DNA of 64,000 nucleotides, taken from the NCBI GenBank assembly GCA_963712115.1, contig CAVQGX010000019.1, positions 1 through 64,000 on the forward strand, given 5' to 3'. Positions within the stretch are counted from its first letter, which is position 1, and each line of letters opens with the position of its first letter. A program made the position numbers and the translations under genes. The notes below the pieces were generated by a model. That model was given only the letters and a program-made list of their open reading frames with translations, did not search any database and was not told where the DNA came from. Below are positions 7,823 to 42,655 of the stretch, piece after piece. Source of the DNA: an uncultured delta proteobacterium (lineage in GTDB: Bacteria > Desulfobacterota > Syntrophobacteria > BM002).

Positions 7823-7897
7823 TGGAGCCGGCGGTGGGATTCGAACCCGCGACCTGCTGATTACGAATCAGCTGCTCTACCCCTGAGCTACGCCGGC
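7823..7897 (-). tRNA. tRNA-Thr(CGT)
   Basis: GCCGGCG acceptor, anticodon arm GCTGA-TTCGTAA-TCAGC, GGTTCGAATCC T-arm, encoded CCA; 75 nt. Confidence 0.97.
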
Positions 7898-23381: not shown

Positions 23382-24668
23382 GTGCGGTTTCTAGCAGATC
23401 TTCATATTCACTCCCATTACTCGGTGGCCACCAGCAAAGCCATGGAACCTGAGAATCTGCACCGGTGGGCTCAACTCAAAGGTATAACGGTGGTGGGAAC
23501 CGGCGACTGCATCCATCCTGGCTGGCTGGCTGAGCTTCAAGAAAAGCTCCAACCTGCTGAATCTGGACTCTATGAACTCCAATCGGACCTGGCCAAACCT
23601 GTGGATGCAACAGTACCGAATCTTTGCCGGGCCAAGGTGCGTTTTCTTCTCAGTGCTGAGATCAGCAGCATTTATAAAAAAAACGGACGTACCCGCAAGG
23701 TTCACAATCTAATCTTTTTACCGGACGTAGAGACTGCCAGGAGATTGCAAGCAGCATTGGCTCGCATTGGCAACATTCAATCAGACGGTCGCCCCATCCT
23801 GGGCCTGGATGCCAAGGAGTTACTCAAGATAGTAAAGGAGACCTCAGATGCGGCCGTTCTCGTTCCTGCCCACGCCTGGACCCCTCACTTCTCCGTGCTG
23901 GGGGCCAAGTCAGGCTTCGACAGCCTAGAAGAATGCTTCGAGGAACTGACCCCGCTGGTTCCAGCCATTGAGACCGGCCTCTCCTCCGACCCTGCCATGA
24001 ACTGGAGGCTATCATCCTTGGACGGTCTCCGACTTATTTCCAACTCTGACGCCCACTCTCCCGTTAAGCTCATGCGGGAGGCGAATTTATTTGACACTGA
24101 TCTCTCCTATGCCTCTATCATCTCGGCCATTACAGAACCTGACAGCCCCTCCTTCCTGGGCACCTTGGAATTCTTTCCTGAGGAAGGAAAATATCACTAT
24201 GACGGCCATAGGGCTTGCTCCGTCCGCATGGCACCCGAGGACACTAGAAGGAACCGTGGGCGCTGTCCTGAGTGCAATAGCAAAGTCACAGTAGGAGTTA
24301 TGCACCGAGTGGAGGAGCTGGCCGACCATCCCGCTGGAAGGCGTCCGGTCCAGGCCCGTTCTTTCAATTCTATGATCCCTCTGATGGAGATAATCGCCGA
24401 GGTTGAGCGCGTCGGGGCCAACAGCAAAAAGGTCAACACTATCTATTTGGATCTCTTGAGCAGACTGGGAAACGAATATCATGTGCTCATGGAGTCAGAA
24501 ATTAAAAATATCCGCCAGGCAGGGTCAGATCTCCTGGGGGAGGCCATTAACCGCATGCGCACCGGCAAGGTTCGCATTTATCCAGGATACGACGGCGAGT
24601 TCGGCACTATCGAGGTTTTCGCTAGTGAAGAACGTGAACAAATCTCCGGCCAGTTGGGCCTATTTTGA
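23382..24668 (+). CDS. Endonuclease Q family protein (PHP domain + Zn finger)
   Basis: ADLHIHSHYS, GTGD, DGRPILG, PAHAWTP, ETGLSSD, SNSDAHS, GKYHYDGHRAC, CPEC, PGYDGEFG. Confidence 0.92.
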   Translation: MRFLADLHIHSHYSVATSKAMEPENLHRWAQLKGITVVGTGDCIHPGWLAELQEKLQPAESGLYELQSDLAKPVDATVPNLCRAKVRFLLSAEISSIYKKNGRTRKVHNLIFLPDVETARRLQAALARIGNIQSDGRPILGLDAKELLKIVKETSDAAVLVPAHAWTPHFSVLGAKSGFDSLEECFEELTPLVPAIETGLSSDPAMNWRLSSLDGLRLISNSDAHSPVKLMREANLFDTDLSYASIISAITEPDSPSFLGTLEFFPEEGKYHYDGHRACSVRMAPEDTRRNRGRCPECNSKVTVGVMHRVEELADHPAGRRPVQARSFNSMIPLMEIIAEVERVGANSKKVNTIYLDLLSRLGNEYHVLMESEIKNIRQAGSDLLGEAINRMRTGKVRIYPGYDGEFGTIEVFASEEREQISGQLGLF

Positions 24669-32219: not shown

Positions 32220-35200
32220 ATGGCATATCAAGATCTACTCTATTTTCTCCAAAATGTGGGCAAGGATCCCTCGCGCCTGATCTTCGAAGACGAGCTCACT
32301 GGTATATATAACCGCCGTTTTCTCCTCAACTATTTCGAATACAAAATCCCCTGGGATTCCTTGGAGAACCACCCGGTGTCGTTGATCATGCTGGACATAG
32401 ACTATTTCAAACAAATCAACGACACCCACGGTCATGAGGCCGGAGATCAGGCTCTCATCTGGGTGGCCACCTTGTTGCGGGAGGTAGCTGGTGAAGCGGG
32501 ATTGCCCGTCCGTTATGCTGGAGACGAGTTCATCATACTCCTGCCCAAAGCTAAGAAACAGGCTGCTCTGCAAATTGGTGAACGCTTAGTCGAGCTGGTC
32601 CATGAAAAACCAGTTCACCTAGAGGGGACGGAAGATGAATTTTCTCTAACCCTGAGTATTGGCGTAGCCTCAGCACCAGAAGACGCCCAGACTGGCAAGG
32701 ATCTCATCCAGAAAGCAGATACAGCCCTCTATTTTTCCAAAAAAACAGGCCGTGATCGACTCGCCAACGCCAGTTTGGTAACCCCTCATGAGGTCTCAGA
32801 CAGAACAGCCCTTTACCACCTTGATAAAGCGACGATTGCCGGCCGACAGGCTCAACTCGCCACCGTGGCTGAGGCCCTAAAGAGATTCAGCGAAGGCAAA
32901 AGTCAGTTTCTCATTGTCGAGGGGGCAGCCGGCCTAGGGAAGAGCGAGTTTTTAGACACAATTCAAAAAAATATCTCGGAAAGCAAAGATTTGCAGATTA
33001 AGGTCAGTGGTGTAGCCCAAGAGCTCTTTCGACCTTACTATTTAACCACCAACATCCTAATTGAAACATTCAACCGGCTACCCGACAAGGGCATCAAAAT
33101 CCTTGAGAGTCTGAATCCTAAAGAAATCTATTACCTTTCCCACATCCTTCCTCAGTTGGGAGAATCCGAAGGCTACAGCAAGGACGGCGAAAAAGCTCAG
33201 CGAGAGGGTCTCTTTACCACCCTCGTACGTTTCATCCCAAAGGTTCTCAATTCCCGTCCTTCCATATTGCTCGTTGACGATCTGCACTTTGCTGACGAGG
33301 CCACCTTGCTCCTTCTGCGCCGGCTGATCCTGGATGGAGGTTTTCCTGTATTTATATGTGCCACTGCAGCAGACACCCGCCATGACAAGTCGGAGGGAGA
33401 TCCACCCCCCTTGGAACGCTTTTATGCTTCCTATTGCAAAGATTTGGACATACACAAGGTCAGCCTAACACCGCTTACCGCTGCACACATCGCCGAACAT
33501 CTACGAGGAGTTTTCCCTCAGTTAGATTTGCCCAAAAATTTTGAGAACAACATAGCCAAGATCACTCAGGGAAATCCGTTGTTTCTAAACGAAATCGTGC
33601 GCAAGCTGGTAATGGACAGGAAAATTAACCTAGTGGGCAACCAGTGGGTGGTTGAACCTTTGGGAGAAGGTTACCTTCCCGAATCTCTCGAGCAGATCGT
33701 GAGCGAGAAGATCGCCGCTTTAGATGAGGAAAGCAGATCGCTGTTAGATCAAGTTTCCACCTTTGGCGAAAATGTTTCATTGAGTATGCTCTCAGGAAGC
33801 TCTGAAGAAATGGAAGCAAAAGTCCTGGAATTCCTCGACCAGGCAGTGGCCCAAGGCTTAGTGAGCTCTGAATTTCAGATTAATGATGAGACAATTCGCT
33901 TCCTGAGTAAGAGAGTTTTGGACATCGCCTACGGTGCCATAGAGGAGGAACGCAAACAAGAGTTGCACGAACGTGTGGGTACCTACCAGGAAGTCCTTTT
34001 CGAGCAACATCTCATCCCTTCAGCTGCCACTTTGGCCTATCACTTCAAGCGTTCCACCAATCAGGAAAAGGCCGGGAACTACGAAAAACTGCAGGCAAGT
34101 TCGAACAATAGATTATTCGACGCAGCAGAGGCAGTCTACTACACTGCTGAGAGGTCACCTGAAGCTGCTCCCGATACCAGTCCGCTGGATAAGAACAGCT
34201 TGCCGCTAATTCCCGCCGTGATCCGCTCAATGCTCTTGGTGGTGCGCAACTTGAAGCTCTATCCTCCCGGAAGTAAGGCTATCGTAGCAGCCAATCGGCA
34301 GATGAAGGAGGTAATCGACCAGTTTCTGAAAAAAAATGAGCTTCTCTCGCTCTTTGGTATCAAGAGTGCCTTAATCGTCAATGGCCAGAAAATTGATGTG
34401 ACCGAATACAAGTACTTCGCCGAGTCCTTTTTGAAGCTCCTGAGCCGCTTTGAACTCAAAGGCATAACCTTTAGAAAGGGCCTTACAGAGAAGGAATTAC
34501 AAATATTGCTTGAGGCCTTCGGTCGGGTTAAGCACGACATGATTGACCAGCATTTCTGGCAACGCTTTTTAGGGGAGCAGCGGATTGTCAATATTGAGAT
34601 GACTCAGGTTCGCTATACGGTGATCACTGATTCGACCAGCCAAGCACACACCGCTCAACTTGTTGCCGGTGAGGATGGTTTATCTGCGGTAGAGATCGCT
34701 GCCCAACTGGAAGATGCCGAACAGGGCATGGATGAGCACGACATCAGGGAACTACCCGAGATCATACGCACCCTGCTTAATGCGGCGAGAAGTATAAAAC
34801 TCTACCCACTGAAAAGCAAAGCTATCGCAGCTGCCTTAGAGCTGCTGCAGCAATCCCTCAAGAGTATCTTGGACAGAAAACCAGCTCTTACCCTGGCGCG
34901 GGTTGGGGACTCTCTTCTGGTCAACGGGGAAAAGATCGACATTTCAGAGTTTGAAACACTGGCTCAGGCCTTTCTCAAATTCCTTGACTCCCTTTCCCTA
35001 ACTAGTCTCACCTTTCTGGCCACCGTCTCTTCCGATGAACTGCAAGCATTTGTTGGCTCCCTCGGGCAGCTTCCTACCTCTGAGTTGGATGGCAACTATT
35101 GGGCAAATTTAGCAAAAGAGAAGGGACTGAGGGGTATTCTCTTCGACCTGCGTCTCTATGAAGCACGAGTCTCAGCTGCTAGGATGACTCCCGTTGAGAC

Positions 35201-36500
35201 CCGCCAAGTCAAGGTCAAAGCCCAACCAGTAAAGACGGTGCAAAAGGAAGCTCCAGAACCAGCAGAAACTCTTGATGATCTCGCAGCAAAAATGGTGGTG
35301 CGGGTAAGCGATCTTTTGCTGAAGGGGGACGAAGCAAAACTCAAAGAGATTATAAAACGTCTTCTCCAGGAATACTTGCAAGGTCCATTACAGACCCGCC
35401 AAAAGATAGTAAAGCGTCTAAAGGGTATGCTGGAAGGTCTTAACTTGGGCCTGCAGAATCAGCTGGCAAAAATAATGGCAGGTCTGCTCCTCCTAGTTTT
35501 CTCCAGAGAAGATGATCCCATACTTCTCAGAGAGCTAGCAAACCTTCTTCACCAACTCAACACAACCCTGCTTCAATTTGGAGAGTACCCTGCTGCCAGC
35601 CAGATTCTCCTGCATCTCCATCGCCGGCACCAGGAGCTTGTCGAGGCGCGAAGTGAGCAGGCTCAATTACTGGGGAAAATACTCCTCAGGCCCCTGGAAC
35701 CAAAAGCACAACAGCTAATCCTCGAGGACTTTCGCTCCGGCGACCCAGCGCGGCGGCAGAATGCGGCACAACTGCTGGGGAGCACGCGCCAAGCCGCCTT
35801 CCCCTTGCTCATAAAGCTCATCAAGAGCGAAGAGGAATTCAGAGTTCGGCAAATGGCCGCCTCTCTCCTCGCAGAGTACGGACCTCAAGCGGCAAAATTG
35901 CTGAAACGTGAATTGGCACTCCGGACCAACCCAGACGAAAAGGTTCGTATCCTCGAAATCCTCGACAGTGTCACCCGCGACCTTAGAACGGAGCTTGCTT
36001 ATGCCCTTACTGATGACAGTGACCAGGTACGCCAGGCGGCTCTTCAGCTTGCCGAAAGATTGAACGACGATCAGGCGGGCAAGCTCCTTTTAGAACAAAC
36101 TGAGAATGGAAACGTAAATGTGGCAATTGCTGCAATTACATTTTTGGGGAAACTCAAACCGCCTACTGCCCATGAAAAGCTTGTTTCCATATTGCAAACA
36201 GCCAAGAATGAAAAACTGGTTGTGGCCTGCTGTCAATCTTTGGGACTGATCGGGGATTCAGCCAGCATTGACCCCCTGGCAAAACTCCTGGCCTCAAAAG
36301 GCTTGTTTCGCCGTAACCGACAAAGTGCTGAAGTCCGCGCCACTGCTGCCTTGGCCTTATCACAAATCGATCATCCCAGGGTTGTTCAGATCCTCAGCAG
36401 CTACACTGACGATAACGACCCCCGGGTAAGGCAAATAGCCAGCTCTCTCAAACTACCTCCAAGTACTCATCCTAATAGCAAACTTGCTGCCGCCAAGTGA
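32220..36500 (+). CDS. GGDEF + STAND (AAA_16-like) NTPase + 2x KLYP domain + HEAT-repeat protein, paralog 1
   Basis: DELTGIYNRR, DIDYFKQINDTHGH..GD, RYAGDEF; GAAGLGKS; LLVDDLH; TQGNPLF; LAYHF; HEAT units ending DNDPRVR. Confidence 0.88.
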   Translation: MAYQDLLYFLQNVGKDPSRLIFEDELTGIYNRRFLLNYFEYKIPWDSLENHPVSLIMLDIDYFKQINDTHGHEAGDQALIWVATLLREVAGEAGLPVRYAGDEFIILLPKAKKQAALQIGERLVELVHEKPVHLEGTEDEFSLTLSIGVASAPEDAQTGKDLIQKADTALYFSKKTGRDRLANASLVTPHEVSDRTALYHLDKATIAGRQAQLATVAEALKRFSEGKSQFLIVEGAAGLGKSEFLDTIQKNISESKDLQIKVSGVAQELFRPYYLTTNILIETFNRLPDKGIKILESLNPKEIYYLSHILPQLGESEGYSKDGEKAQREGLFTTLVRFIPKVLNSRPSILLVDDLHFADEATLLLLRRLILDGGFPVFICATAADTRHDKSEGDPPPLERFYASYCKDLDIHKVSLTPLTAAHIAEHLRGVFPQLDLPKNFENNIAKITQGNPLFLNEIVRKLVMDRKINLVGNQWVVEPLGEGYLPESLEQIVSEKIAALDEESRSLLDQVSTFGENVSLSMLSGSSEEMEAKVLEFLDQAVAQGLVSSEFQINDETIRFLSKRVLDIAYGAIEEERKQELHERVGTYQEVLFEQHLIPSAATLAYHFKRSTNQEKAGNYEKLQASSNNRLFDAAEAVYYTAERSPEAAPDTSPLDKNSLPLIPAVIRSMLLVVRNLKLYPPGSKAIVAANRQMKEVIDQFLKKNELLSLFGIKSALIVNGQKIDVTEYKYFAESFLKLLSRFELKGITFRKGLTEKELQILLEAFGRVKHDMIDQHFWQRFLGEQRIVNIEMTQVRYTVITDSTSQAHTAQLVAGEDGLSAVEIAAQLEDAEQGMDEHDIRELPEIIRTLLNAARSIKLYPLKSKAIAAALELLQQSLKSILDRKPALTLARVGDSLLVNGEKIDISEFETLAQAFLKFLDSLSLTSLTFLATVSSDELQAFVGSLGQLPTSELDGNYWANLAKEKGLRGILFDLRLYEARVSAARMTPVETRQVKVKAQPVKTVQKEAPEPAETLDDLAAKMVVRVSDLLLKGDEAKLKEIIKRLLQEYLQGPLQTRQKIVKRLKGMLEGLNLGLQNQLAKIMAGLLLLVFSREDDPILLRELANLLHQLNTTLLQFGEYPAASQILLHLHRRHQELVEARSEQAQLLGKILLRPLEPKAQQLILEDFRSGDPARRQNAAQLLGSTRQAAFPLLIKLIKSEEEFRVRQMAASLLAEYGPQAAKLLKRELALRTNPDEKVRILEILDSVTRDLRTELAYALTDDSDQVRQAALQLAERLNDDQAGKLLLEQTENGNVNVAIAAITFLGKLKPPTAHEKLVSILQTAKNEKLVVACCQSLGLIGDSASIDPLAKLLASKGLFRRNRQSAEVRATAALALSQIDHPRVVQILSSYTDDNDPRVRQIASSLKLPPSTHPNSKLAAAK

Positions 36501-36763
36501 GGAATTCAGGTGCGGAGACTTTGGATTTAAGGTTCCAGGGGGGCTTCAAAGGTCTTTCCTTCTCACGGGCATCCGCGGATGTGGATTAGTGGAGAATCTT
36601 GATGGTGACTGTTAGGTATTGAAAACCGAGCGATCTCACTGTATCATAGTCAAAGAAAAACCTTGTTTAGGAGAGCTTCACCCTCTGAAGTCCCTCGACC
36701 CGCCACTGCTTTTTCACCTTGCTCTCCTAGCCTACACATAGCGGGTCTTGATCCGACCTTAGT

Positions 36764-39700
36764 ATGGAATACAAAGATCTTCTTCATTTTCTTCAGCATG
36801 TCGGCACAGATCCTTCGCGTTTGATCTTCGAAGACGAACTCACCGGTATCTATAACCGCCGTTTCCTCCTTAATTACTTCCGCTACAAGGTACCCTGGGA
36901 TTCCTTGGAAAACCGGCCCCTGTCTTTGCTCATGATGGACCTGGACCGTTTCAAGGAGATTAACGACAACTATGGTCATGAAGCTGGAGACCAAGTTCTG
37001 ATCTGGGTGGCCAGTCTTATCAAAGAGGTATCAGGTGATCAGGGGTTAGCCATCCGCTACGCGGGCGATGAGTTCATTATTCTCATGCCCAATGGTGCCA
37101 AAGAGGCGGCCCTGAAAGTTGCCGAACAGCTCCTCCAAAGGCTTCACCAAGAGGTCGTCCGCTTGCCGGAAGTGGATGAGGAGCTACGTATTACACTCAG
37201 TATAGGTGTTGCTTCAGCCCCAGATGATGCCTACACAGGCAAGGCTCTCATTCAGAAAGCAGATACTGCTCTTTACTATGCAAAAAAGACAGGGCGTGAT
37301 CGGTTCGCCAACGCCAAGGAAATAGCCCCTGAGGAAGTTTTTACTAAGACTGCTCTATATCAATTAGATAAAGCAAGAATCGCCGGCCGCAAGAACCAAC
37401 TGACTAAAGTGGCCGAAGCCTTGAGAAAATTCAGCAAACGGGAAAGCCAGTTCCTCATCGTTGAGGGGGCAAGCGGCATGGGTAAAAGTGAATTTATCCA
37501 AACAATCCGCAGGAACCTGGCCCAAACCAAGATCTGGCAAATCGCTGTTAACGGAGTTCCCCAGGAAGGTTTTCGCCCCTATTATCTGACAACCAACATT
37601 CTGGTCGAGATAATGAATCATAGACCAGATAAGGGTGCCGGCATCTTGGATCACCTAAGCCCGCAGGAAGTAAACTACCTTTCTCACATATTACCCCAAT
37701 TGGGAGAGCCTGAAGAGGAGGCGGACCAAAAAGATGAAAAAACTCAGCGCGAAATCATCTTTACCACCCTTGTCCATTTTATCCCCAAGCTGATCAACTC
37801 ACGACCTTTAATCTTCTTTATTGATGATTTGCACCTGAGCGACGAGGCTACTCTCCTGCTACTAAGAAAGTTGCTTTTGCGTAATGATGTTCCCCTTTTC
37901 ATCTTGGGAACTGCCATGGATATTCTCCCGGGTAAGGGGGAAGGACAACAGACGCCACTGCAACGTTTCCTTACCGCACATCAGCAGGAACTTATTATTG
38001 ACACCGTGCCCCTTACCCCGCTGACAGCCTCTGACATTGGCGCCCACTTTCGGGGGATTTTTCCACAAGTGAGCTTGCCTGAAGATTTTGAAGGGAGCCT
38101 AGTGCAGATCACCCAAGGCAACCCTCTTTTTCTCAGCGAGATCCAGCGTAAGCTTGTCCTAGAGGGGAAACTTACCCTCACTGGGCAACAATGGATGGTA
38201 GAGCCCCTAGAGGAGGGTTATCTACCTAAGTCTTTGGAAGAGATCGTCAGCCAGAAGATCGTGGCCTTGGACAAGGAGAGCAAGGAGCTACTCGATCAGG
38301 CCTCCACCTTTGGCGAGAATGTTTCCCTAAGCGTGCTTACTGGCAGTTCTGAGAATAGGGAGACGCAGGTGCTTGAATTCGTCGATCAAGCGGTAGCTCA
38401 GGGTCTTATCAGCACCGATTACCAGATGAACGACGATACCATCCGGTTCCTCGGTAAGCGTGTTTTAGAGATCACTTACGGTGCCATTGATGAAGATCGG
38501 AAACGGGAATTACATGAGCGGATAGGTGACTACCAGGAGACCCTTTATGAACAAAAACTTTTGCCCTCAGCTGCGACCCTTGCCTACCATTTCCAGCTCT
38601 CGGCGAACCATGAGAAGGCCCGTCTCTATCTAGAGTCTCAACAAACCCACAACAATAAAATCTTCAACCCAGAAGAGGCGGTCAACTATACAGGAGAAAA
38701 GTTAGAGGATACCGTTCCGGAGGACACTCCCCTAGATTCCACCAGCCTTTCGGAGATCCCTGGGGTCATTCGTGTGCTCCTCACCACCATACGCAACATC
38801 AAGCTCTACCCTCCTGGAAGCAAGGCCATCGTCACTTCAACCCAGCAGTTGCAAGAAGCGATCGACAAGATCTTGAATGACAACCAGCGGCTAAACATCA
38901 CGGTCGTAGAAAATGATCTGGTAGTAAACGGCGAAACTCTGGATATTGGAGAGTTCAAATCAATAGCCCAAGCGTTTATGAAATTCCTCAATCAGGTGGA
39001 ACTGAGAGGCATAGCCTTATCTCAAGGCCTAGCTGGGCATGAATTAAGGGCAATGGTAGAAGGACTTGGCAGAATTAGTAAAAAGATGATTGATCGACGC
39101 TTCTGGAAACGATTTGCGGCGGAGCAGCGTCTATATCACATAGACATGAAGCAGGTGCGCTACACTACCATGGCGGGACCGGATGGAGCCTTAGAAGATC
39201 CTGGAGAGCCCAACCCGAGAGCAGAGGTGCTCCCAGGTATGATGCCTCCCAAATTCTCGGTGTTGACCAGCCATTAGATGATCGAGATTTGAATCAGATT
39301 CCAGATGTACTTAGGTGTCTCCTCACTGCCACCAGTAACATTAAACTCTACCCCCCGGAAAGCACTGCCATCAGGTATTCAATCGAGCAGCTCTATCAAG
39401 CCTTAAAAGCCTTTCTTGCCAACCGTCCTGCCCTTACCCTGGCGCGGGTAGGTGAGTCCTTGCTGGTAAACGGCCAAAGAATAGACACCGCTGACTTCAA
39501 AACCATGGCCGATGGTTTTTTGAGATTCCTGGAGTCTGTAAACCTCAGGAGCTTGAGCTTTCTGAGAGATACTTCTGTTCGTGAGTTGGTAGCTTTCATT
39601 AGTGCTGCCGTTCAAAGCACTGCTGACGGTTTTGACACTTTTTTCTGGCGGCGACTTGCCAGAGAACAACAGTTATTCGGCATCCTTTTTGACCAGCGTT

Positions 39701-41073
39701 TGTACGGAATTTTAGGGGAACGGGTTGGCATTGGTGTGGATCAGCTGGAAAAGGCGGAGGAACTCCCTGAAGGGGATGGTCTGGGACCCGAGCAGGTTGT
39801 TCCAACCGTTTCAGGGATACCACCAACGGTTGAGCCCGTGCAAGAGTCAGTTGCTTCAGAGCCCAGTGAGGTTCAACTCACCGACCGTTCTATCGATGCA
39901 ATGGCAGAAAAGCTGGGCGATTTTCTCCTAAAGGGTGATGAGAGGCAAGCCCTCCAGATAATTAATCAGCTTTTCCATGACTTCGTCGGCCAGGGGGATT
40001 TGATTCGCACCAAGGTGGTCAATTTTTGCGAAAACTTCCTCGAAGATCCAGTATACGGTTCTCAACCGATTTTGGTGGAGTTTTTGATTGATCCCCTTCT
40101 TCGCGTTTTCCCTCAGGAAGAAGATCTTGGAATTTTGAGACAAATGGCCACACTGCTCTCTCAAACTGCCGCTAATCTAATTCAGTTTGGAGATTACCAG
40201 ATGGCCAGCCGGATTCTGACGCATCTGCGCAATCGTCAGAATCAGTTGCAGGCAGGTAGGGACACAAAAGCCCTAGCGGATGAGACAATTCTGCTCAGAG
40301 AACTTGATCCAAAAACCCAGATGATTCTTTTGGAAGATTTGCGATCAAAAGACCCCGCCAGGCTCCAGAGGGTTACCCAACTTCTGAGCAGCTTGGGAGC
40401 AGTAGCCATGCCCCTGCTCGTAGAGGTGGTAAAAGGTGAAGAAAGCCTCAGGCTGAGACAGATTGCCTCATATCTGCTGAAATCATTGGGGCCTGAAGGG
40501 GCCAGACTCCTTAAACGAGAACTGGTACTTGAGGGCTTTCCCAAGGAAAGGGTGCGAATTTTGGAGGTGATCGACGGCGTAACCCAAGACTTGAAAACCG
40601 AACTCGCTTACACTTTGGGTGATGACAATCCGAAGGTGAGGCGAGCGGCATTTCGCCTCACGGAGCGTTTGAATGATGCGCAAGTAACTTCTTTGCTATT
40701 TGATTATGCCAACCACGAAGATCCAAAGATGGCCGTAATTGCCATCAAGTCCTTAGGAAAAGTCAAACCTGCAGGAGCAGTGGACGTTCTGCTTTCGTTA
40801 CTTGAGTCCTCCAAAGAAGTTGAACGTTTGATCGCTTGCTGTCGGGCCCTCGGACAAATTGCCGATCCAGCAGCTATCGAACCGCTGGCCAAAATGTTGT
40901 CTCCAGGAAGTATTTTGTTTCTCCGAAAAAGAAGGAGTTCTGCAATCCGCGCCGCCGCTGCTTTCGCTCTGGCGCAGATACCTCATGCTAGGGTCTCCGA
41001 AGTACTAGCCCCTTACGCAGATGATCGGGATCTGAGGGTTCGACAAATTGCCAGATCACGGATTGCTGAGTAG
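36764..41073 (+). CDS. GGDEF + STAND + 2x KLYP + HEAT protein, paralog 2; frameshift near 39200-39240
   Basis: ORFs 36764..39277 and 39289..41073 align consecutively to paralog 1; the second frame is already homologous at 39241 (DASQILGVDQPLDDRDL). Confidence 0.85.
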
Positions 41074-42202: not shown

Positions 42203-42394
42203 TAGCCCGGATATTTCATGAATTGGCGTCGGGAGACCGTGAAGATGGACGTGCCACCGGGCAATCCCGCGGTACCGCGGGATTGGATCCGAGGCGTACC
42301 TGAGTGGTACGTCGCAGGGTCCGACACCCGAGGACGCCCGGAAGGACAGCCATATCCGCGGTCGCAGCAGGCGATTCATGAAATATCCGGGCTA
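42203..42394 (+). mobile_element. MITE family A copy 3
   Basis: Perfect 21-bp TIR tagcccggatatttcatgaat; CTAG at both junctions. Confidence 0.9.
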
Positions 42395-42655
42395 GGCGGA
42401 TAGCAGATGAGCGCCAGCATGATTTGGCTGATGAGCAGAACAGTCGGTGACTTCTACTGGAAAAGTTTCCAATCGAACGAATCGCACTAGCGTATATCTT
42501 CCATAAGAATAGCAAAACTTGCTCCATTGTCGAGCGGATTCTTTTGACAAAGGGTTGCTCTTTAGTTATGCTAATTTTGTCCTAACGTACCAGTATTCTT
42601 CTGCGAAGTTCCTTTTATGGGTTGCCCAATGTTTTTTTAGCATCCCCTGGAGAAA

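Follow-up and report, generated by a model that had tools for sequence, protein, structure and literature searches.

Tandem paralogous genes predicted to couple a diguanylate cyclase to a STAND-type NTPase in an uncultured delta proteobacterium

What would a GGDEF domain, the catalytic domain of diguanylate cyclases that make cyclic di-GMP (c-di-GMP), be doing at the head of a protein that is otherwise laid out like an NLR? Two tandem genes raise this question, here called A and B, which lie in a 64,000-nucleotide stretch of DNA from an uncultured delta proteobacterium (assembly GCA_963712115.1, contig CAVQGX010000019.1; lineage Desulfobacterota, Syntrophobacteria, BM002) that was analyzed as a whole and is referred to as the window. 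Our results strongly suggest that both genes specify a STAND-coupled diguanylate cyclase that is probably active. With distinctly less assurance, although we favor it over the alternatives, we propose that A and B are old paralogues within a conserved chromosomal family of cytoplasmic diguanylate cyclases that are placed under a STAND switch and are activated by assembly.

A predicted cyclase joined to a STAND-type NTPase

Both genes match the Pfam models for GGDEF (residues 24-180, E about 1e-42), for AAA_16 (residues about 207-375; in A 207-370, E 2e-13), and for C-terminal HEAT repeats, which in A appear as four stretches of HEAT_2 (E 4.7e-27 for the whole protein and E 2e-31 for the C-terminal piece alone), while residues about 650-1030 have no Pfam match in either gene (Table 1). 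The first-pass annotation, made from the letters of the window alone, had described two paralogs of about 1,430 residues and had proposed domain mapping as a check. The mapping returned GGDEF, AAA_16, and HEAT_2 in both genes, and the description fits gene A, a single open reading frame (ORF) of 1,426 codons, while gene B is broken into two frames, a break that the annotation had overlooked. Every motif that it listed was located in A and in B, where they read DLDRFKEINDNYGHEAGD, RYAGDEF, GASGMGKS, FFIDDLH, TQGNPLF, and LAYHF in gene B.

The cyclase domain scores far above the thresholds of its models, with 147.9 bits for A and 142.9 bits for B against a cut-off of 23.8 for PF00990, and 153.4 and 157.1 bits for the two genes against a cut-off of 37.4 for TIGR00254. 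The block DxDxFKxINDxxGHxxGD, the DxD...N..D residues of which we take, after PleD, to bind metal and recognize guanine, is present in both genes and is kept as DxDxFKxxNDxxGHxxGD in 74 of the 76 full-length genes from genome loci on which all our motif tallies are based. The Asp that follows the conserved Gly of GHxxGD is the mark of GTP-specific rather than "Hypr" GGDEF enzymes. The active-site signature itself reads AGDEF in A and in B, and across the family it is AGDEF in 52 genes, GGDEF in 23, and SGDEF in 1. VCA0965 of Vibrio cholerae is reported to be an AGDEF enzyme that produces c-di-GMP both in vitro and in vivo, and that stays active with A, G, M, or H at the first signature position (PMC3974145). 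Judged by its residues, the cyclase of A and B looks competent.

Residues 181-660 of protein A were modeled with AF2 from a 79-row alignment at a mean predicted local distance difference test (pLDDT) score of 87.8 and a predicted template modeling (pTM) score of 0.86. Foldseek matched the model at a probability of 1.00 to CED-4, Apaf-1, MalT (8bob), the STAND-TPR protein 6mfv, the NB-ARC domain of NRC1, and Avs3, aligning it over 410 to 485 columns with the first five. ORC/Cdc6 AAA+ proteins score similarly, and a fold search alone cannot separate STAND from AAA+ neighbors; such matches are expected for this branch of AAA+-like NTPases. The matched proteins share the NOD fold, a nucleotide-binding domain followed by a helical domain with the GxP motif and a winged-helix domain; GNPLF is present in both genes, and a repeat-type C-terminal sensor region follows, in which four HEAT_2 stretches come after two copies of an unmodeled domain that we call KLYP. 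The Walker A residues G238, G240, and K241 of protein A (G58, G60, and K61 of the modeled piece) are invariant in the 79 aligned sequences, and full-length family genes keep the Walker A motif in 69 of 76 cases and hhhDD and GNP[LF] in 75 of 76 each. Positions 464-914 of TIGR03903, which lie after the cyclase in this TOMM kinase/cyclase fusion family, align to residues 190-642 (E 4.7e-24), but the protein as a whole falls short of membership in that family (84.3 bits against a cut-off of 705.75), the NTPase module alone being aligned, and phmmer found no match to this module at E<=1 among PDB sequences. Taken together with the model, these features point to a STAND module of the MalT/Apaf-1 type in A and B, and the fold matches bear out the effector-NTPase-sensor layout that the first-pass annotation had read from the motifs.

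Table 1. Positions of features of genes A and B in the window; domain names are predictions
Feature	Positions	Strand	Evidence
Gene A: intact 1426-aa (A)GDEF - STAND NTPase - KLYP x2 - HEAT protein	32220..36500	+	ORF, translation, Pfam, 100% match in own genome
Gene A GGDEF domain, residues 24-180	32289..32759	+	Pfam PF00990 E 2.9e-43; TIGR00254 E 4.5e-45
Gene A metal/base-binding block DIDYFKQINDTHGHEAGD	32394-32447	+	motif positions
Gene A RYAGDEF active-site motif	32511-32531	+	motif positions
Gene A STAND NTPase module, residues about 190-650	32787..34169	+	AAA_16, TIGR03903, AF2 model, Foldseek, motifs
Gene A Walker A GAAGLGKS	32922-32945	+	motif positions
Gene A Walker B LLVDDLH	33267-33287	+	motif positions
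Gene A GxP motif TQGNPLF	33564-33584	+	motif positions
Gene A LAYHF	34032-34046	+	motif positions
Gene A KLYP domain 1, about 143 aa, no Pfam model	34197..34625	+	internal repeat, alignment, AF2 model
Gene A KLYP domain 2	34743..35171	+	internal repeat, alignment, AF2 model
Gene A C-terminal helical/HEAT-repeat region, residues about 1031-1426	35310..36497	+	HEAT_2, HEAT, HEAT_PBS
A-B spacer, 263 bp	36501..36763	+	sequence
Promoter-like site TTGAAA-17-TATCAT in spacer, 10/12 match, weak	36619-36647	+	promoter scan
Gene B, pre-break part: GGDEF, STAND module, KLYP-1	36764..39206	+	ORF, Pfam, internal repeat, motifs
Gene B GGDEF	36833-37303	+	
Gene B STAND module	37331-38713	+	
Gene B KLYP-1	38744-39172	+	
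Gene B frame break, one base absent in window	39206..39207	+	four other runs, intact orthologues
Gene B, post-break part	39208..41073	+	ORF, Pfam, internal repeat, motifs
Gene B KLYP-2	39289-39717	+	
Gene B helical/HEAT region	about 39919-41070	+	

Family, KLYP domain, and the two paralogues

The architecture is not confined to this genome. A word-seeded homologue search in which 7,999 candidates were scored gave 1,858 matches at E<=1e-3, and 119 of the best 120 of these are proteins of 1,370 to 1,474 residues with GGDEF, AAA_16, and HEAT_2; those that have a name in public databases are called "diguanylate cyclase." When one genome was scanned for each species, 94 loci were confirmed, of which we kept 80, all of them records of metagenome-assembled genomes (MAGs) with labels from Deltaproteobacteria/Desulfobacterota lineages, Nitrospirota, Acidobacteriota, Gemmatimonadota, Rokubacteria, Myxococcota, and Aminicenantes. 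In these loci the family spans at least five phyla at a near-constant length of about 1,390 to 1,500 residues. Within the taxonomic family to which the window belongs, 19 of 21 genomes have a match at E<=1e-50, against none of 19 genomes from five other families of the same class.

The part of the proteins that has no Pfam match contains a unit of about 140 residues that is duplicated within gene A (residues about 664-797 against 845-978, 33% identity, E 7e-28), as the first-pass annotation had noticed, and the residues K-L-Y-P are present in each copy, that is, twice per gene in A and in B. We built a profile from 12 KLYP domains and compared it with 1.84 billion cluster representatives (clusters at 50% identity), which gave 813 proteins at E<=1e-3 and 276 at 1e-10, mostly with two copies in proteins of about 1,400 residues. 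Those checked among the best 150 of the 813 nearly all have the GGDEF-STAND-KLYP-HEAT architecture. The same 150 include a 2,140-residue protein (P0236) with a Ser/Thr kinase fused ahead of a complete GGDEF-AAA_16-KLYPx2-HEAT protein, KLYP plus HEAT alone in about 720 to 740 residues (some shorter ones may be fragments), and a KLYP-cNMP_binding-PilZ form. The last corresponds to a small family of about 830 to 1,100 residues (P0263 and P0271-P0275) with an N-terminal KLYP domain followed by HEAT_2, cyclic-nucleotide-binding, and PilZ domains, possibly a reader of c-di-GMP or cyclic nucleotides built on the same input module.

A further link leads to the degradation of c-di-GMP. In a Gemmatimonadales genome, two weak extra matches to the KLYP profile (E 2.5e-6 and 7.5e-5) both lie at the N termini of HD_5 proteins, one of which has 496 residues with ELYP, HD, and GYP motifs. 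When 30 proteins of this HD-GYP family were aligned and compared with the KLYP profile by hhalign, the two matched at a probability of 94.7% (E 6e-8) over 125 of 144 columns, so that KLYP is a distant homologue of the domain at the N terminus of a Gemmatimonadota HD-GYP family. In both loci examined, the HD-GYP gene with KLYP follows a HEAT-repeat gene. These loci, in a Gemmatimonadales MAG (L114, 457..3296, minus strand; L115, 979..3277, minus strand), are paralogous two-gene units in which the stop of a HEAT-repeat gene of about 450 codons overlaps the start of the HD-GYP phosphodiesterase gene. On the side of c-di-GMP degradation, KLYP and HEAT are thus still paired but encoded by separate genes. 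Because GGDEF-STAND, HD-GYP, and cNMP_binding/PilZ proteins all carry it, KLYP appears to be shared by putative makers, breakers, and readers of c-di-GMP, usually alongside HEAT. It is a candidate for a new domain, with a role in sensing or interaction, that ties the three together.

The AF2 model of the KLYP tandem (pLDDT 81.2) predicts a pair of long helices, with LYP located where one turns into the other, followed by a small alpha/beta unit. Foldseek found no match to this model in the PDB at E<=0.001; the best were phytochrome PAS-GAF-PHY modules (E 9e-3, TM 0.09). Re-examination of the top 1,000 Foldseek matches gave a best Z of 3.9 and did not confirm the likeness to phytochromes. The best Z that VIA-align reached among 48,161 chains was 5.8, for a stretch of 64 residues that includes the helical hairpin only, the ESM Atlas returned no usable match for the KLYP pair, and Pfam at E<=10 yielded only noise in the KLYP region (DUF3630, E 0.038). 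We do not claim a new fold, because the tandem rather than the single domain was searched, and because the tandem model matches no solved fold it does not indicate whether KLYP binds a small molecule or a protein. When the HEAT region (1022-1426) and the KLYP pair (655-990) of A, each with an alignment, were modeled as a complex, both runs scored 0.00 where the mark is 0.32, which bears neither way.

How old is the pair, and what keeps it? In a FastTree tree of 78 sequences that clusters largely by phylum, an A clade of 13 rows and a B clade of 12 rows, each with a support of 100, branch internally in parallel, and the nearest rows outside either clade are single-copy genes of other Desulfobacterota-type MAGs. 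The tandem, A followed by B on one contig, occurs in 9 related genomes. Of the 80 loci, 10 have it and 70 have one copy, so that conservation of the pair, a check that the first-pass annotation had named, holds among relatives and not across the family. The proteins of A and B have 80% identity across their first 60 codons, with 0.11 nonsynonymous substitutions per site (dN) and 1.29 synonymous substitutions per site (dS), which agrees with the earlier remark that their 5' ends differ largely at synonymous sites; dS between them is 1.3 to 1.5 over the GGDEF part, where it is saturated, and undefined beyond. The dN/dS ratio of gene A is 0.10. As the same annotation had suggested, the duplication is old and under purifying selection (dN/dS about 0.1), and the tandem has been kept in this lineage. 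In an intact pair from a related locus (L021), A and B are 68% identical in GGDEF, 62% in the NTPase, 48 to 50% in KLYP, and 46% in HEAT. Because it is in the sensor half that the sequences diverge most, the two proteins most likely respond to different inputs, and the conserved pair naturally allows two sensors to be compared on the same chassis. In the region, the promoter scan gave 4 promoter-like sites, below the mean of 8.4 in shuffled sequences, and the terminator scan did no better than shuffles; gene B may have a promoter of its own at the site in the spacer.

The frame break in gene B needs separate consideration. Its first ORF, 36764..39277, has 837 codons, and the continuation lies in another frame that is open from 39094 to 41073. 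By homology to intact B orthologues (1,442 to 1,454 residues), the shift falls at about 39206, in the poorly conserved linker joining the two KLYP domains, and with one base restored the gene would encode about 1,436 residues. We compared positions 38700-39700 with contigs from four metagenome runs of four studies (estuary, marine sediment, sediment, and one unlabeled), which are 95 to 99% identical to the window at the break site. All four have an extra base after 39206, C in three and T in one. Against four orthologues, the dN/dS ratio of gene B is 0.07 to 0.10 before the break and 0.15 to 0.25 after it, and the same C-terminal part gives 0.16 to 0.24 among intact B orthologues; the part after the break shows no sign of relaxed selection or decay. 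Because the base is kept in all four runs, the relatives are intact, and selection is not relaxed, gene B is not an old pseudogene; its break arose either in the assembly or by a very recent mutation. The runs do not decide between these two, as none of them comes from the source sample (best share of words 0.69). Long genes of such size are often frame-broken in metagenome assemblies, and 6 of the 80 MAG loci (L028, L044, L076, L091, L093, and L099) have the family gene in two or three ORFs. A programmed frameshift was considered and rejected, there being no slippery run, the orthologues being in one frame, and the base being present in all four related populations.

Activation and the rival readings

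By analogy with switches of the MalT/Apaf-1 type, and because two GTP-loaded GGDEF domains must meet for c-di-GMP to be synthesized, we lean modestly toward a specific mechanism of activation by assembly. In the resting state, the KLYP/HEAT region would keep the NTPase closed. Binding of an intracellular ligand or partner protein to this region would then lead to nucleotide exchange and self-assembly, and assembly would pair the N-terminal cyclase domains and turn c-di-GMP synthesis on. Diguanylate cyclases are known to be activated mainly via receiver, PAS/GAF, and membrane-sensor inputs; a cyclase in the effector position of a STAND protein would follow a different control logic, with ATP-dependent assembly as the on-switch, in a large family that extends across several phyla of uncultured sediment and soil bacteria. 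A bolder version, which we regard as doubtful, takes KLYP plus HEAT as a dedicated c-di-GMP input module and A and B as an NLR-like paired receptor that co-assembles into a c-di-GMP "synthasome"; if true, it would be the first STAND signalosome with a cyclic dinucleotide as its induced-proximity output.

Several points weigh against a cyclase switched on by assembly. The assembly step rests wholly on analogy, the KLYP tandem model has no solved counterpart in the PDB, and no c-di-GMP receptor or target gene is linked at the locus. If the break is real, gene B is inactive in this strain. An AGDEF domain can be inactive, that of NbdA being termed degenerate in a 2026 preprint. The family is widespread but patchy, with matches at E<=1e-50 in at least 11 of 201 evenly sampled genomes of the phylum, a lower bound since two candidates were scored per genome.

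Of the rival readings, the one that survives best, although we consider it improbable, holds that A and B form an obligate hetero-oligomer or a sensor/helper pair and that B is truly broken here, leaving the system disabled or rewired. The tandem order in 9 related genomes, the co-divergence of the two clades, and the presence of the break in this assembly would all fit. However, the single copy in 70 of 80 loci suggests that a lone copy suffices, and the two genes are separated by a spacer of 263 bp with a promoter-like site. Plant sensor NLRs in sensor/helper pairs show one-sided degeneration, whereas A and B both keep all catalytic and NTPase motifs; because neither copy has lost a motif, two receptors fit better than a sensor and its helper. 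That B is truly broken is further opposed by the base present in all four related populations, by the lack of relaxed selection after the break, and by the split copies elsewhere in the family, which point to sporadic assembly or strain-level breaks.

A little less probable still is a noncatalytic scaffold or receptor, in which a degenerate AGDEF domain would only bind GTP or c-di-GMP and the protein would act via its HEAT arm. The first Gly of the signature is replaced in A and B, as it is in the 52 AGDEF members from genome loci, and the NbdA preprint describes such a domain as degenerate. The remaining catalytic, metal-binding, and base-binding residues are nevertheless kept in 74 of 76 genes, 23 have a full GGDEF, and AGDEF is active in VCA0965 (PMC3974145). 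Binding of c-di-GMP at an RxxD I-site is not suggested either, since no such site is found at the expected position in any of the 76 genes; in gene A this position reads GEAG.

The neighborhood bears on the proposal of the first-pass annotation that the KLYP/HEAT region senses a protein or phage cue, for which it had asked whether the pair lies near defense islands. Upstream of the pair are genes for UvrD, RecG, a nucleoside transporter, and a CxxCxxCC protein and, farther off, for a sigma-70 factor, a GTPase, and ThiD; downstream are a CDP-alcohol phosphatidyltransferase, FdhD, a cysteine desulfurase-like enzyme, MobB, MobA, MoeA, and Lgt. No mobile or defense gene is found among the neighbors over about 35 kb. 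When all ORFs of the 80 loci were clustered, no neighbor family occurred in more than 10 loci, those 10 being synteny-sharing close kin, and no defense gene cluster recurred beside the family. Because no neighbor is conserved and mobile or defense genes are absent, the family gene appears to act alone or with unlinked partners. PADLOC gave a single match below E 0.001, HEAT-ARM_XIII over the HEAT region (E 1.3e-6), followed by SngB (E 0.007) and, in the B orthologue P0039 only, mad8 (E 0.0035), and none to a STAND defense protein. Near the genes, Rfam detected neither a c-di-GMP riboswitch nor any other RNA; its sole match in the window is a tRNA at 7826-7897 (minus strand). Amid the housekeeping genes, two ORFs have no Pfam match, one of 428 codons at 23382-24668 (plus strand) and one of 103 codons at 42216-42527 (minus strand).

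An NLR/Avs-like anti-phage sensor, in which KLYP/HEAT would bind a phage protein and c-di-GMP would serve as an alarm or abortive-infection signal, can claim the effector-NOD-repeat layout of Avs, a match of the NTPase model to Avs3 (8dgc, E 1.3e-6), and the weak HEAT-ARM match, but is the least probable reading and very unlikely, given the housekeeping flanks, the want of a recurring neighbor cluster or a PADLOC STAND match (SngB at E 0.007 being the best), a tree that follows phylum with paralogue clades mirroring each other, strong purifying selection along the whole length, unlike that of fast-evolving immune sensors, and no linked downstream killing effector activated by c-di-GMP. To us the family looks like ordinary cell signaling rather than phage defense, and the defense interpretation of the first-pass annotation is not upheld.

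Relation to known systems

Our literature search, within the limits set by subscription-only papers and supplementary files outside its reach, found no published study of this architecture, in agreement with the statement of the first-pass annotation that it knew of no such characterized protein. The individual parts of A and B have described relatives. One is MalT of Escherichia coli (8bob_C), the fold of which matches the model of A (TMq 0.48, E 5.6e-8), as does that of the archaeal STAND-TPR protein 6mfv_A (TMq 0.44); the MalT/AAA_16 clade shares with A and B the AAA_16 match, Walker A, hhhDD, GxP, and helical repeats C-terminal to the switch. MalT acts through a LuxR-type DNA-binding domain at its C terminus and senses maltotriose by binding it with a SUPR/TPR-like array, whereas the predicted output of A and B is an N-terminal GGDEF enzyme and the sensor would consist of two KLYP domains and HEAT repeats. 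The class III adenylyl/guanylyl cyclase-AAA_16-TPR(-LuxR) proteins, such as the Rv0386 group of Mycobacterium tuberculosis, and TIGR03903 likewise place an enzyme of the nucleotide cyclase type N-terminal to the same kind of NTPase. A and B differ from them in carrying GGDEF, which yields a cyclic dinucleotide and requires two domains to meet, and in a sensor of KLYP and HEAT instead of TPR.

Apaf-1 and CED-4 give the best fold matches of the NTPase model (4m9s_A, E 5.6e-9; 3sfz, TMq 0.44) and are the textbook case of an N-terminal effector that is switched on by proximity after assembly. They belong to the eukaryotic cell death machinery, however, with no sequence-level relationship to A and B and with different effector and sensor domains. 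The Avs proteins resemble A and B in their effector-NTPase-repeat layout and in the fold match to Avs3 (8dgc_B), but A and B have neither a defense-island context nor a PADLOC STAND match, their inheritance looks vertical, and their putative output is a housekeeping second messenger.

Among cyclases of the PF00990 type, the GGDEF domains of A and B score far above threshold, and AGDEF is common to them and VCA0965. Canonical enzymes such as PleD and WspR are switched by receiver, PAS/GAF, or membrane domains that precede the cyclase, and many of these enzymes have an RxxD I-site. In A and B, by contrast, the cyclase lies at the extreme N terminus, has no I-site, and is followed by a STAND/sensor region of 1,240 residues. 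The family thus combines anew, as far as its domains can be recognized, parts of MalT-clade STAND proteins, of class III cyclase-AAA_16-TPR proteins, and of GGDEF cyclases with an unmodeled domain.

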